From Candidatus Helarchaeota archaeon (GTDB lineage Archaea; Asgardarchaeota; Lokiarchaeia; Helarchaeales; RDOG01), in the NCBI GenBank assembly GCA_019058315.1, contig JAHPZH010000002.1, positions 256,001-320,000 on the forward strand: a DNA stretch of 64,000 nucleotides, in the 5' to 3' direction. The notes below the pieces were generated by a model. That model was given only the letters and a program-made list of their open reading frames with translations, did no database searches and was not told the origin of the DNA. Shown here one piece after another: positions 40,556 through 46,177 of this stretch (the stretch's first letter is position 1; the number at the start of each line of letters is the position of its first letter). The position numbers and the translations under genes are program-made.

Positions 40556-41692
40556 ATGGAAGAAGAAATATTAGGTAAACCGGTAGTAGTTGACAACGGA
40601 ACAGGTATTACCAAAAATGGTTATGCCGGTGAAGACCAACCAAGATCTGTTTTCCCAACGCTTATTGGATATCCCAAATATACATCAATTATGACCGATG
40701 TAGAGCATTACACACGTGAATACTATATTGGGGAAGAAGCATTACAACTCCGTGGTGTTTTAAGACTAAATTATCCTATTGGCCATGGTATAGTAGAAGA
40801 TTGGGGTGCTATGGAAAAAATTTGGCATTATACTTTCTACACTGATTTGAGAATTGACCCTGCAGAGCATCCAGTTCTTTTAACAGAGCCTCCCTTGAAT
40901 CCTAGACCCAATAGAGAAAAAATGTGTGAAATCATGTTTGAGACTTTTAACACTCCTGCCATCTATGTAGCAATGCAAGCAGTTTTATCATTATATGCCT
41001 CCGGTCGTACTACAGGACTTGTATGCGATTCCGGTACTGGTGTAACGCACGTTGTCCCTATTTATGAAGGATTTGCTCTTACACATGCTATCTCAAGATT
41101 GGACCTTGCAGGACGTGATATCACCGAATATTTAATGAGACTCTTGCGCCAAAGAGGTTATTCTTTAACAACTTCTGCTGAGAAAGAAATTGTTAGAGAT
41201 ATTAAAGAAAAACTTTGTTACGTAGCATTAGATCCTGAAAAAGAGCTAAAATTAGCAGAAAAAGTTTCTGGAATGGAAAAATCTTACATGCTTCCTGATG
41301 GTGAAACTCTAACTGTGGGAGTAGAAAGATTCCTTGCACCTGAAGTAGTCTTCAATCCTAGCGCAGTAGGAAAAGAAAGTCCTCCTATGGATGAAGTTAT
41401 CGTCGAAGCAGTTTCTAAATGCGATATCGATTTACGCCGAGACCTATATTCCAATATCGTCCTATCTGGCGGTTCAACTATGTTTCCAGGTCTTAAAGAA
41501 CGCTTAACAAGAGAAATAAGCGAAATGATCCCTGAAAACGTAGAGGTTAAAATTATCGCACCTCCTGAGCGAATGTATTCGGTCTGGATTGGTGGATCGA
41601 TTCTATCCTCGTTAAGAACCTTCCAGAAGATGTGGGTAACTCGTAAAGAATATAAAGAAATTGGTCCATCTGTAATACACAGATGTTTTTAA
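40556..41692 (+). CDS. Actin (Lokiactin-type)
   Basis: [73 protein letters not shown] end. Confidence 0.97.
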
Positions 41693-41708
41693 TTCAAAAT
41701 TTAAAAAA

Positions 41709-41732
41709 CTCTTTTTTTCTTTTTTTAATTTT
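41709..41732 (+). terminator. Oligo-T terminator region downstream of actin
   Basis: ctctttttttcttttttt shortly after the stop, between convergent genes. Confidence 0.5.
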
Positions 41733-41774
41733 AATAAAAATTCTTTAAAAAATAAGATTTATTTATAATTAATA

Positions 41775-44588
41775 TTATAGAAGTTGAGGTCCTTTCTTCT
41801 TTTTTTTCTCTTCCTCTTCAATCTGCTTTTCAACTTTTTTTAGTTTCTTTAAATCTTCTTCTGATAAATCTCGATCTATTTTCAAAAATGTAGGAGCTGC
41901 TTTGGCTTTTTTTAATTCTTCTTCCTTCTCTTTTATTATTAATTGATCTTCAGACAATACAGGACGAAACACAACATCTCCTAAAAGCATCAGAAATTCA
42001 TATAATTCGATTCTTTGCAATCTTTCCTTCTTATATTCTTCTAATTCCGCCTCTTTTTTACGTCCTTCATAAGGTCTTGATGCTAATAATCCCTCTTTTT
42101 GTTCTTCGTGTTTAAGTTTATAAGTTCGGGTCTCACCGGTCTCGTCCATGTATGTCACATAACTTGCTTTATCTTTTGCAGCTTTCTCTTGTAATTCGTC
42201 AAAATAGGACTTAGTTTTTTCTTTCTTAACTTCACCAACTACACCAGATTCCTCCCAATCTTTTTGACGTTCCGAATCCAAATCCTTAAATGAAGGTTCT
42301 TTAACTTTTTTATATTTTCTTTCTACTTTTTTAAATGGTTTATAATCTTCTGCTGCATATCTTGCAGTGTCCTTTAATTCAAGCTTTCTCTTACCTTTTA
42401 ACTCTTCCGGGATATAGTCTTTAGCTTTCTCTCTTGCATCATCCTTCAATTCTAGCTTTCTTTTTCCTTTTAATTCCTCTGGAATGTAATCCATAGCCTT
42501 ATAGCGAGCATCATCCTTTAATTCAAGCTTTCTCTTATAATCTTTATACTCTTCAGGGATGTAATCTTTTATTTCATCCTTATAATCATCAGTTAATTCT
42601 AATTTTCTCTTATATTTTAACTCCTCTGGAATATAATCTTCAGCCTTATAGCGGGCATCGTCCTTCAATTCAAGTTTTTTCTTATATTTTAACTCCTCCG
42701 GGACGTAATCTTCAGCCTTATAGCGAGCATCGTCCGTTAATTCAAGTTTTCTTTTATAATCTTTATATTCTTCAGGAATATAGTCAGTAATTTCTTCCTT
42801 ATAATCCTCCGATAGTTCTAGCTTTCTTTTGTATTTTAGCTCCTCCGGGACATAATCTTCAGCCTTATAGCGAGCATCATCCGTTAATTCAAGCTTTCTT
42901 TTATAATCTTTATATTCTTCAGGAATATAGTCAGTAATTTCTTCCTTATAATCCTCCGATAGTTCTAGCTTTCTTTTGTATTTTAACTCCTCCGGGACAT
43001 AATTCTTAGCTTGATAACGTGCATCATCCGTTAATTCAAGTTTCTTTTTATAATCCTTATATTCTTCAGGAATGTAGTCAGTAATCTCTTCCTTATAATC
43101 CTCAGATAGTTCTAGTTTCCTCTTATAATCTTTATATTCTTCAGGAATATAGTCTTTAATCTCTTCCTTATAATCCTCAGATATTTCCAGTTGTCTCTTA
43201 TACTTTAACTCCTCTGGAACATAATCTTTAGCTTTATAGCGAGCATCGTCTTTTAATTCTAGTTTTCTTTTATAATCTTTATACTCTTTGGGGATGAAAT
43301 CTTTAATTTCCTCTTTGTAATCTTCAGATAATTCAAGCTTTCTTTTATAATCTTTATATTCTTCTGGAATAAAATCCTTTATTTCCGCCTTATAATCCTC
43401 TGAAATCGCTTCTCTCTCTACTTTTTTATAAGGCATAAAATCTTTTATCTCTTTCTTATAATCATCTGTAATTTCTACTTTTTCCTTTTTTGGAACAGGT
43501 TTCCAATCCTTGGCAACAAATCTAGCTGTATCTTCAATTTCCAACTTTTTCTTTGGAACACCTTTTCCCGCTGCTGCATCAAGAATATCCTTACGTTGAG
43601 CATCAATTGTTTTAAAAGTTAAACCAGTTGGAACCTTAATTTTTCCCTTAATTGTTTGTGTTTTATCAGTAATTACTGTTTCATCTTGTTTCCATTGTTC
43701 AGCCATCGTCGCATCTATTTGTTTAAAAGTCGGTCCTGTATCATCCAGAAGTTGTTTCTTCATAGCAGGAGTTTCTTGGGTTGGTAATAGGTCAGATTGC
43801 ACTGTTTCTATTCGTTTATATGTACCTTCTGTATCCTCTAATAGTTCTTTTTTGTGAACAACAGGAGTGACTCCAGGCTGTAATAGAGATTCTTTAGTAC
43901 CAAATTGTTTAACCTCATCTTGAGGATAGGTAACTGGAGTCTGTTGAGCTTTTAATTTTGATTCTATTTCCTCTTCATATTGAAGGAAAGTTGGACTAGT
44001 AGTTTCTTCTATTTTTTGTTTTGGTTGTTCTGTGGGAATTTGATAGTCGATTTGTTTTTCTACTTGTTCATAAGTTGGTATGTATGTTTCAGGTATAGGT
44101 TGTTTTGTTATTTCTGGTTGTTCTATTTGGTTTTGATAACTTATTTGACCTTCTACTTGTTTATATGTTCCTTGATAGAGGGTTTCTTCAGAGGGAGTTT
44201 GACCATATTTGGGTGAAGGTTGGATGGTTTCTGGCATTTGTTCTTCAACAGTTTCATAAGTGGGTCTATAATATTCTTCTTGTTCCACATACGTTTCTGG
44301 AGGTTGAGTTGTTGGATAATCATAAGTTTTTTGTTCCTCTATGGGGGGTTGCTCAACAACAGGTTGCTGAACAGGAGGTTGAGGATAAGTAGCTGTTTCT
44401 TTTTGAGTAATAGCGGGGGGTATTGGTTCCGTCACTTGTGTTTTAGGAATACCTTGTCTACATTGAGGGGAACAAAAATCCCCTTCTATGAAGAAGCACT
44501 TTGAGCACATAAACCCTCCACAAACAGCACATTTATAATTATGTCGAGGGTTTTTTATATTTTTTCCACAACTTGAACAAATCGGCAA
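41775..44588 (-). CDS. 937-aa Zn-finger + P/Q/T/E linker + 24/25-aa tandem-repeat protein
   Basis: N-terminal four Cys pairs; repeats KRKLELSEDYKEEI.DYIPEEYKDY and KRKLEL.DDARYKA.DYVPEELKY. Confidence 0.85.
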   Translation of the reverse strand: MPICSSCGKNIKNPRHNYKCAVCGGFMCSKCFFIEGDFCSPQCRQGIPKTQVTEPIPPAITQKETATYPQPPVQQPVVEQPPIEEQKTYDYPTTQPPETYVEQEEYYRPTYETVEEQMPETIQPSPKYGQTPSEETLYQGTYKQVEGQISYQNQIEQPEITKQPIPETYIPTYEQVEKQIDYQIPTEQPKQKIEETTSPTFLQYEEEIESKLKAQQTPVTYPQDEVKQFGTKESLLQPGVTPVVHKKELLEDTEGTYKRIETVQSDLLPTQETPAMKKQLLDDTGPTFKQIDATMAEQWKQDETVITDKTQTIKGKIKVPTGLTFKTIDAQRKDILDAAAGKGVPKKKLEIEDTARFVAKDWKPVPKKEKVEITDDYKKEIKDFMPYKKVEREAISEDYKAEIKDFIPEEYKDYKRKLELSEDYKEEIKDFIPKEYKDYKRKLELKDDARYKAKDYVPEELKYKRQLEISEDYKEEIKDYIPEEYKDYKRKLELSEDYKEEITDYIPEEYKDYKKKLELTDDARYQAKNYVPEELKYKRKLELSEDYKEEITDYIPEEYKDYKRKLELTDDARYKAEDYVPEELKYKRKLELSEDYKEEITDYIPEEYKDYKRKLELTDDARYKAEDYVPEELKYKKKLELKDDARYKAEDYIPEELKYKRKLELTDDYKDEIKDYIPEEYKDYKRKLELKDDARYKAMDYIPEELKGKRKLELKDDAREKAKDYIPEELKGKRKLELKDTARYAAEDYKPFKKVERKYKKVKEPSFKDLDSERQKDWEESGVVGEVKKEKTKSYFDELQEKAAKDKASYVTYMDETGETRTYKLKHEEQKEGLLASRPYEGRKKEAELEEYKKERLQRIELYEFLMLLGDVVFRPVLSEDQLIIKEKEEELKKAKAAPTFLKIDRDLSEEDLKKLKKVEKQIEEEEKKKKKGPQLL
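42321..43553 (-). repeat. Coding tandem repeat array of 75-nt (A) and 72-nt (B) units, about 17 copies
   Basis: Near-identical DNA units, e.g. 'ttataatctttatattcttcaggaatatagtcagtaatttcttccttataatcctccgatagttctagc' recurs. Confidence 0.92.
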
Positions 44589-44978: not shown

Positions 44979-45647
44979 ATGGAACGTGTGGATATAGAGA
45001 AAATCATTGCTGGAGTCGAAGCCCGGCGGATTATTCTAAATTGCTTATTAGATGGGCGAAAAACAGGGAGCGAAATAAGATGGGCTCTTGCAGACAGTTT
45101 CGATAGACGAATCGATGGTGTTTCTGACACTCTTTTATATTTTAATCTCCAACACCTCGAAAACTGTGAAATTATATCTCGGACAAAAGAATGGAAACTT
45201 AAATATTCTGAAATCCACCCAAGTAAAATTCAAAGTATTCGAAGATTTTTCCACAAGATTGTACCTATTACGATAATTGGAGGAATAGATGATGATATTA
45301 CTGTTATTCGAAGCCTCCGGAGTCGTTTACGTGTTGAAAAGTCAATGACCCCGCCAGAAAAATACTTTTTCATCGGACCGGAAACCCTAAGGAGAAAAAT
45401 TGCTGGTTTATTCCCTGATGTAAAACTTTTATATGCAAAAGAAGAAATATATAAAAATCCGGCCGAATTACGCGATTTTATCAAACTAGAAATGTTAGAT
45501 CCTGAGATAATGAACAATGAAGTTATAATTGATGTCTCTTCAGGATCTAGAGTTTGTTCATTAGCATTACTTAGCCTTGCTTATGAATATGGCCTAAGAT
45601 GCATTTATCTGGACGAAAATGAGAAGTTAACTTGGTTAATTGAATAA
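44979..45647 (+). CDS. wHTH + CARF-like domain transcription regulator
   Basis: N-terminal RRIILNCLL...LLYFNLQHLE..EII; C-terminal IIDVSSGSRVCSLALL...CIYLDE. Confidence 0.62.
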   Translation: MERVDIEKIIAGVEARRIILNCLLDGRKTGSEIRWALADSFDRRIDGVSDTLLYFNLQHLENCEIISRTKEWKLKYSEIHPSKIQSIRRFFHKIVPITIIGGIDDDITVIRSLRSRLRVEKSMTPPEKYFFIGPETLRRKIAGLFPDVKLLYAKEEIYKNPAELRDFIKLEMLDPEIMNNEVIIDVSSGSRVCSLALLSLAYEYGLRCIYLDENEKLTWLIE

Positions 45648-45661
45648 ATAGCGTATTTTAA

Positions 45662-46177
45662 TTATTTTTCTAAAATCTTATCTGTAAGGAGTCTAAATGC
45701 TTCTTCTACGTTTTCTCCTGAGCTAGCTGAAGTTTCAAAAAAGGGGAGTTTTTTCTTTTCACCATATTCTTTGCCCATATCTTTTGTAACTTTCCGTTCT
45801 TTATCTGCCAAATCCGATTTATTACCTAATAAAACAACTGGAACATCGCCACAATAAGTCCGAAGATTTTCAAGCCAGTCATCTAATTCATTAAAAGTCT
45901 CCTTTCGGGTAATATCATAAACCAGAATTGCTCCTTGAGCTTCAGAGTAGTAGTCTGGACGTATCCATTTGAATTTTATATCCCCTGCAATATCCCAAAT
46001 TTGTAGTAAAACTCTAATATTCTTATCTGGATAGTCTAAATATTTAATAGTGAAGTCTGCACCAATAGTTTTTAAATAAGACTCACTAAATTTTCCAGTA
46101 GTAAAACGTCGAACTAAACTTGTTTTTCCTACTGCTGGTTCTCCAATTGTAACACATTTAAATCCCAAAGTTCTCAT
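45662..46177 (-). CDS. Rab-like small GTPase
   Basis: GEPAVGKTS, TIGADF, WDIAG, NKSD, ETSAS. Confidence 0.92.
   Translation of the reverse strand: MRTLGFKCVTIGEPAVGKTSLVRRFTTGKFSESYLKTIGADFTIKYLDYPDKNIRVLLQIWDIAGDIKFKWIRPDYYSEAQGAILVYDITRKETFNELDDWLENLRTYCGDVPVVLLGNKSDLADKERKVTKDMGKEYGEKKKLPFFETSASSGENVEEAFRLLTDKILEK

Follow-up and report, generated by a model that had tools for sequence, protein, structure and literature searches.

Does a zinc-finger and tandem-repeat protein whose gene lies beside an actin gene in an Asgard archaeon belong to the actin cytoskeleton, and on what grounds could it be placed there? The question is raised by a 64,000-nucleotide (nt) stretch of DNA from Candidatus Helarchaeota archaeon (assembly GCA_019058315.1, 5.8 Mb in 12 contigs, hereafter G000). 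This stretch, called the window below, spans positions 256,001 to 320,000 of contig JAHPZH010000002.1 (G000:C5:256001-320000). An earlier note made from the sequence had drawn attention to an actin gene converging with a gene for a zinc-finger and tandem-repeat protein, and had likened the latter to nebulin and LASP. Both open reading frames (ORFs) are present. The actin gene (forward strand) and the ORF of 937 amino acids (aa), P0001 (reverse strand), are convergent, with 82 nt separating their stop codons. The actin matches the Pfam Actin family with 450 bits, and its identity with the canonical actins found in 22 further genomes and contigs of this phylum is 74-100%. Sequence comparison therefore assigns it as a housekeeping gene of the Lokiactin type. 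As described below, P0001 emerges as a candidate new factor of the actin cytoskeleton in Asgard archaea, mainly on account of a tail that it has in common with actin-related proteins (Arps). The features of the gene pair are the following (positions in the window, strand, description).

40556..41692, forward strand: canonical Asgard actin (Lokiactin type), 378 aa (Pfam Actin)
41775..44588, reverse strand: P0001, 937-aa zinc-finger, motif-tail and tandem-repeat protein (ORF; relatives P0003/P0051, P0021-P0025 and P0028)
44454..44588, reverse strand: N-terminal eight-cysteine module, residues 1-45, predicted two-zinc cross-brace finger of the FYVE/RING/B-box type (cysteine conservation)
43944..44276, reverse strand: four type-1 motifs, Y-x-P-T-Y/F-x-x-V/L-E/D, residues about 105-215, 28-31 aa apart (motif scan)
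43554..43838, reverse strand: type-2 motifs, each T-F/Y-K-x-I-D/E and then an amphipathic helix, spaced by about 37 aa within residues 251-345 (motif scan)
42318..43553, reverse strand: 17 tandem units of 24/25 aa (8 of type A, 9 of type B), residues 346-757 (Tandem Repeats Finder and unit tables)
41778..42317, reverse strand: C-terminal module, residues 758-937 (alignment of seven relatives)

When the genomes of relatives were searched, P0001 matched the tail of a 775-aa protein of a sister family that carries an actin fold at its N-terminus. The family of Arps with such a tail comprises 16 database proteins of 694-939 aa, and PF00022 was found in 16/16 of them. Its members, P0004-P0020, are named 'hypothetical protein' or 'cell division ATPase FtsA' in the databases. 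The metagenome-assembled genomes from which they come are labelled Helarchaeota or Promethearchaeota/Lokiarchaeota, and a third family of the order contains more distant members. In an AlphaFold2 (AF2) model of one Arp-tail protein, computed from a 17-row alignment, the Arp and winged-helix domains are confidently predicted and the tail appears as isolated 14-residue helices. A P0001/P0003 profile, run with hmmsearch against 1.8 billion proteins, matched the Arp-tail protein P0006 (E-value 5e-6) in five stretches. With the tail of P0004 as query against the G000 proteome, P0001 was the sole match (E 7e-8). Comparison by hhalign of the C-terminal module of seven relatives with the Arp tails gave a probability of 97.7% (E 2.2e-12) over 173 columns. 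The Arp tails repeat the motifs of P0001 that lie outside the array, collinearly and with like spacing (type 1 about 29-31 aa and type 2 about 38 aa apart). Also common to both families are a type-3 motif with K-G/S-F/Y-F-D/E behind it and, at the end, P-T-F-L and a charged helix that finishes with L-L. P0001 thus carries what we call the PTF-tail module, defined by collinear type-1, type-2, type-3 and terminal motifs together with significant profile similarity.

The distribution of the module was then considered. It was found in one order only, in 7/7 of the species genomes of that order, and was not found in the other 154 genomes of the class. G000 itself scored just under the cut-off in this class-wide search, and its inclusion rests on other evidence. 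Among 400 genomes of the phylum, the zinc-finger form was found in family f1 (G000 and G001) only. In families f2 and f3 the tail is fused to an Arp and no zinc-finger form was found, and the Arps of family f1 (570 and 483 aa) are devoid of the PTF-tail. Within what was searched, the P0001 family is restricted to one order of Lokiarchaeia. At the level of sequence, these comparisons establish that the tail is homologous and collinear in the two families and that its two forms are distributed in complementary fashion. They indicate that some lineages have the tail module as part of an Arp, and that f1 encodes it apart from the Arp, on the zinc-finger protein. This pattern of fusion and separation suggests that the zinc-finger protein acts in a common process with an actin-fold protein.

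P0001 is single-copy in the G000 genome. An exhaustive profile search recovered relatives in other genera, namely P0023 (987 aa), P0024 and P0025 as well as the fragments P0021, P0022 and P0028. Metagenome contigs scanned with the C-terminal module alignment and with the full-length alignment contained no relative. In the G001-type lineage (L007 1-2645, reverse strand; L050 4843-8118), the P0001 homologue is split into two ORFs, of which the first contains the zinc finger and the type-1 part and the second the rest. Because two separate assemblies show it, this split may be real rather than an assembly error. The 570-aa Arp of G000 is encoded outside the window (G000:C5:147758-149482, reverse strand). 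It has a winged-helix-like segment and a coiled-coil end, is devoid of PTF motifs, and groups with the 483-aa protein of G001. On G000:C2, a 308-aa actin-like ORF at about 90998-91972 (reverse strand) shows 46% identity with residues 68-375 of actin, and a TGA lies within the longer match. A 1667-aa ORF with an actin-like stretch was also seen on G000:C2 (reverse-strand offset 285615).

Translation of P0001 is taken to start at the TTG codon at 44588, because relatives begin with M-P-x-C at the equivalent place. The protein is acidic (net charge -30, isoelectric point 5.2), and a composition scan revealed no membrane-spanning segment. A tail anchor was ruled out, the most hydrophobic 19-residue window having a value of 1.33 with Glu, Asp and Arg inside. 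Binding of nucleic acids is unlikely because the protein is acidic. Sequence searches against the PDB gave nothing significant for P0001, and its look-up in the ESM Atlas no usable match.

The N-terminal zinc module seen by the earlier note is real. Its eight cysteines are kept in three lineages, with the spacing C-x2-C-x12-C-x2-C-x4-C-x2-C-x7-C-x3-C and no histidine ligand. The first three cysteine pairs are spaced as in FYVE fingers, and the full-length relative P0051 is named 'FYVE zinc finger domain-containing protein' by NCBI. The Pfam matches of the module are all sub-threshold (FYVE, C1_2, Prok-RING_1 and B-box). In the FYVE test (PF01363), the module reached 13-14 bits, below the cut-off of 27.8. 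In place of the FYVE basic motif R-R/K-H-H-C-R, P0001 reads R-H-N-Y-K-C, and this stretch is not conserved in G001 or P0023. We therefore treat the module as a probable cross-brace two-zinc finger and withhold assignment to the FYVE family.

The P/Q/T/E-rich linker that had been described after the zinc module does exist, but it is not featureless. It contains four copies of Y-x-P-T-Y-x-x-V-E about 31 aa apart, then three type-2 motifs, the last of which ends with a WH2-like A-G-K-G-V-P-K-K-K. The estimate of about 17 repeat units also held. Counting by anchoring on D-[YFW]-x-P gave the 17 units listed above. Tandem Repeats Finder, run over 42370-43400, returned periods of 72, 75 and 147 nt, with three 147-nt copies 93% alike. 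Short-read contigs of the likely source sample are exact at both flanks and break within the array at 42777-43335, so that the exact number of units in the homogenised centre of the array lacks independent bridging. Unit tables of five relatives gave a period of 24-26 aa, a unit number of about 7 to 17 and a family-wide core L-E-L/V .. A/I-R .. A-x-D-Y/F-I/V-P-E-E-L-K. AF2 predicts short helices with low confidence for the repeat units of P0001. The C-terminal module shows, in order, the type-3 motif, K-S-Y-F-D-E, a beta-hairpin with a hydrophobic helix, P-T-F-L and a charged helix ending in L-L; the charged tail attributed earlier to the protein is thus present. The AF2 model of residues 685-937 is of low confidence (mean pLDDT, predicted local distance difference test, 59; pTM, predicted template modelling score, 0.18).

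WH2 peptides follow the pattern L-L-x-x-I-x-x-G-x-x-L-K-K-V/T. The type-2b motif of P0001 fits this pattern only with one residue fewer ahead of the glycine. The terminal L-K-K-V of P0001 was also considered as a WH2 signature. It was ruled out, since close relatives have K-E-I or K-K-I at this place and the Arp tails have I-K-E-F.

How might such a protein work? We tentatively read P0001 as a multivalent scaffold that binds actin or an Arp through its helical motifs, a reading that we hold to be quite possible, if somewhat short of probable. The protein would be cytoplasmic, largely disordered and rich in short binding motifs. A glycine and a basic stretch follow each of its regularly spaced amphipathic helices, which may act like tandem WH2-type peptides, each helix holding one actin or Arp subunit. 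P0001 could in this way gather or tether several subunits so as to favour their assembly or to stabilise or anchor them. Attachment to a membrane or to a partner would fall to the zinc finger, and the 17 tandem units would form either a spacer or an array binding laterally to the filament. The link to the actin cytoskeleton that had been proposed for this gene is plausible, but not for the reasons then given. What speaks for it is the homology with the Arp tails, a neighbour gene shared with actin (see below) and a weak co-fold.

In the co-fold, the actin of the window (23-row alignment) was modelled together with P0001 residues 282-350, which contain two type-2 motifs, and adenosine triphosphate. 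The score was 0.53 (runs 0.48, 0.55 and 0.53), as compared to 0.00 for the best of three controls. Contact agreement was at least 38% and partner pLDDT at least 49 in the runs. In the calibration, the mark was reached by 58/80 solved complexes and by 2/110 mismatched pairs, counts that hold roughly here because own alignments and a riding ligand were used. The modelling thus lends weak support to actin binding by residues 282-350.

A more detailed joint reading, which is unlikely to hold as a whole, would make the tail motifs Asgard-specific tandem peptides that bind actin monomers. The Arp fusion of families f2 and f3 would then be a one-chain nucleator, and in f1 the tail would be carried separately, on a FYVE-like protein. 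In this scheme the fused Arp would provide the first subunit of the nucleus, a logic that would be part Arp2/3 and part SPIRE. The f1 protein would couple actin assembly to a membrane or to a Ras-family GTPase, and its 17 repeats would line the newly formed filament.

The genes upstream of P0001 bear on these readings.

44979..45647, forward strand: 222-aa protein that matches no known family and whose N-terminus looks by eye like a PadR-like winged helix; adjacent to P0001 and divergent from it
45662..46177, reverse strand: Ras-family small GTPase, 171 aa (Pfam Ras, 171 bits); upstream neighbour of P0001

The 222-aa protein has no Pfam or PDB match. Its gene flanks the zinc-type gene in the four lineages with context (G000, L002, L007/L050 and L049). 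L049 is the most distant of these lineages, with 49% identity in the 222-aa protein. In the f3 genomes G003 and G006, which have no zinc-finger gene, a homologue is the gene immediately upstream of actin, in the same orientation (L071 1489-2274; L072 1489-2280); in f2 it is located elsewhere. G000 joins both pairings, since its actin, P0001 and 222-aa genes are consecutive. The 222-aa protein, as the steadiest neighbour of the zinc-finger gene, may regulate both that gene and actin. The position of the Ras-family GTPase is kept in L002 and L007/L050, which makes three lineages with G000, and is not kept in L049.

Adjacency of actin and P0001 is seen in G000 and in a syntenic JGI contig, in which the whole neighbourhood is conserved so that the two cases are not independent. 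In a related strain from another study, one contig bridges the 3' ends of the two genes. The synteny that a partnership with the adjacent actin had led the earlier note to look for is thus limited to G000 and its close relatives, and is absent from the G001-type and P0023 lineages. In two wetland metatranscriptomes, RNA contigs were found only over actin (90-97% identity) and none over P0001, which is uninformative on the expression of P0001.

Several observations weigh against a scaffold acting on actin. In G001, a genome of the same family as G000, actin lies mid-contig among other genes. The complete G001-type locus (L050) has Arf-like GTPase genes downstream in place of actin, and the P0023 locus has a hydrolase there. 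Five motif fragments of 38-45 aa (four from P0001, one from P0025) gave no match to WH2 (PF02205) at E up to 10, nor did a 248-aa Arp tail. The possession of a common tail by P0001 and an Arp is evidence of joint use and not a proof of actin binding. The tail-less f1 Arps came out as sister to the Arp-tail clade (support 91/86), a provisional placement given the long branches and the only 20 rows of the tree. Finally, the co-fold score falls in a weak band (<=0.60), in which the mark was reached by 7/80 solved complexes and by both of the mismatches that passed, and the pass may reflect memory of the abundant solved actin-peptide complexes.

The alternative that best withstands the data is that the shared tail is a localisation or hub module without contact to actin. 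It would dock a GTPase, a membrane-associated factor or the 222-aa neighbour, and the Arp, or the zinc finger and the repeats, would thereby be positioned. We judge this rather unlikely, yet worth serious attention. Next to P0001, the Ras-family GTPase and the 222-aa gene are found more steadily than actin, and the Arf-like genes downstream in L050 point in the same direction. The tail motifs are generic amphipathic helices without a match to the WH2 hidden Markov model (HMM), and the weakness of the co-fold leaves room for a partner other than actin. However, the unrelated controls of the co-fold stayed at 0.00, the P0023 locus is devoid of a GTPase neighbour, and the regular spacing of many copies, 29-38 aa apart, fits a polymeric partner.

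A second alternative concerns the array. The P0001/P0003 profile cross-matched confirmed DUF4116 proteins with E-values of 2e-13 to 2e-7, and the cross-matched P0027 and P0030 score 201-228 bits on DUF4116 (PF13475). The array could accordingly be a distant relative of DUF4116, or convergent with it, and form a solenoid or protein platform unrelated to actin, the actin adjacency in G000 being a local rearrangement. The units of P0001 and those of the DUF4116 proteins (P0027, P0029 and P0030) indeed both repeat about every 24 aa and end in Y-V/I-P-E-E-L-K. In contrast, DUF4116 itself gave no match at E up to 10 for the arrays of P0001 or P0023. Unit-level hhalign of the P0001 array against DUF4116 reached a probability of 61%, a value that is partly circular since the alignment is anchored on the common motif. 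The hydrophobic core positions of DUF4116 are mostly occupied by charged residues in P0001, whose AF2 models are of low confidence. A DUF4116-like platform also leaves the homology with the Arp tails unexplained. This explanation seems to us improbable, and the resemblance itself may reflect either distant kinship or convergence.

The kinship with nebulin and LASP put forward in the earlier note fared worst. Nebulin-family repeats are about 35 aa long, carry the motif S-D-x-x-Y-K and bind along the side of the actin filament, one module per subunit; LASP proteins combine a LIM domain with nebulin repeats. The likeness of D-D-A-R-Y-K to this motif stands in part: the type B units of G000 match it at 5/6 positions, but Tyr-Lys is replaced in P0023, P0024 and P0025 by forms such as IRDSA, ARDAA and AREAA. 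The HMM comparison that had been proposed for the repeats gave no match to Nebulin (PF00880), either for the whole of P0001 and its residues 390-760 (E up to 1) or for residues 563-660 and the array of P0023 (E up to 10). LIM domains have the spacing C-x2-C-x16-23-H-x2-C-x2-C-x2-C-x16-21-C-x2-C/H/D. A LIM identity of the zinc module was ruled out by its cysteine spacing, its want of a histidine and the failure of LIM (PF00412) to match any of four N-termini at E up to 1. A filament ruler in which each 24/25-aa unit binds one subunit and the zinc module stands for LIM is therefore very unlikely: the 17 near-identical units, a core conserved in four lineages, the 5/6 motif positions and the arithmetic by which a 24-aa unit, if mostly extended, could be long enough to cover the 5.5-nm subunit repeat of filamentous actin speak for it, and these HMM results, the 24-26-aa period, the loss of Tyr-Lys, the variation from about 7 to 17 units and the unconserved actin adjacency speak against it.

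Overall, the scaffold reading places P0001 next to known systems as follows. The closest is the Arp-tail family, from which it differs by a two-zinc finger where the Arp-tail proteins have their Arp and winged-helix domains. P0001 also adds the 17 tandem units between type 2 and type 3 and the beta-hairpin/helix segment, and does without the K-K-V-M-I-x-D-L-L-K-P-K element of the Arp tails. If the tail acts as supposed, the two families would offer a natural pair, fused versus separate, for dissecting how Arps cooperate with short actin-binding peptides. With nebulin and LASP, the likeness is confined to a zinc module joined to a long tandem array of short charged units.

In a 2026 study of a cultured Asgard archaeon, the main actin regulators listed are profilins and gelsolins only (PMC13716822). 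If proteins of the P0001 type bind actin, they would be a new kind of Asgard regulator, the third besides these two. Because the searches found the family in a single order, the bearing on eukaryote origins would be indirect, pointing to an independent invention of tandem-motif actin regulators and not to ancestry.

SPIRE is a tandem-WH2 actin nucleator with a FYVE-type zinc finger, whose FYVE_2 region binds RAB GTPases and membranes (PMC11231147). P0001 resembles it in layout only, having regularly spaced short helical motifs together with a FYVE-like finger. A GTPase of the Ras superfamily figures in both cases, as a gene neighbour in that of P0001. The finger is C-terminal in SPIRE and N-terminal in P0001, which shows no sequence homology to SPIRE, has no Pfam WH2 match, stays below the Pfam FYVE threshold and has no KIND domain, and whose proposed actin binding has a weak co-fold pass behind it. 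By analogy, and not by homology, the layout of P0001 appears closer to tandem-WH2/FYVE proteins such as SPIRE than to nebulin.

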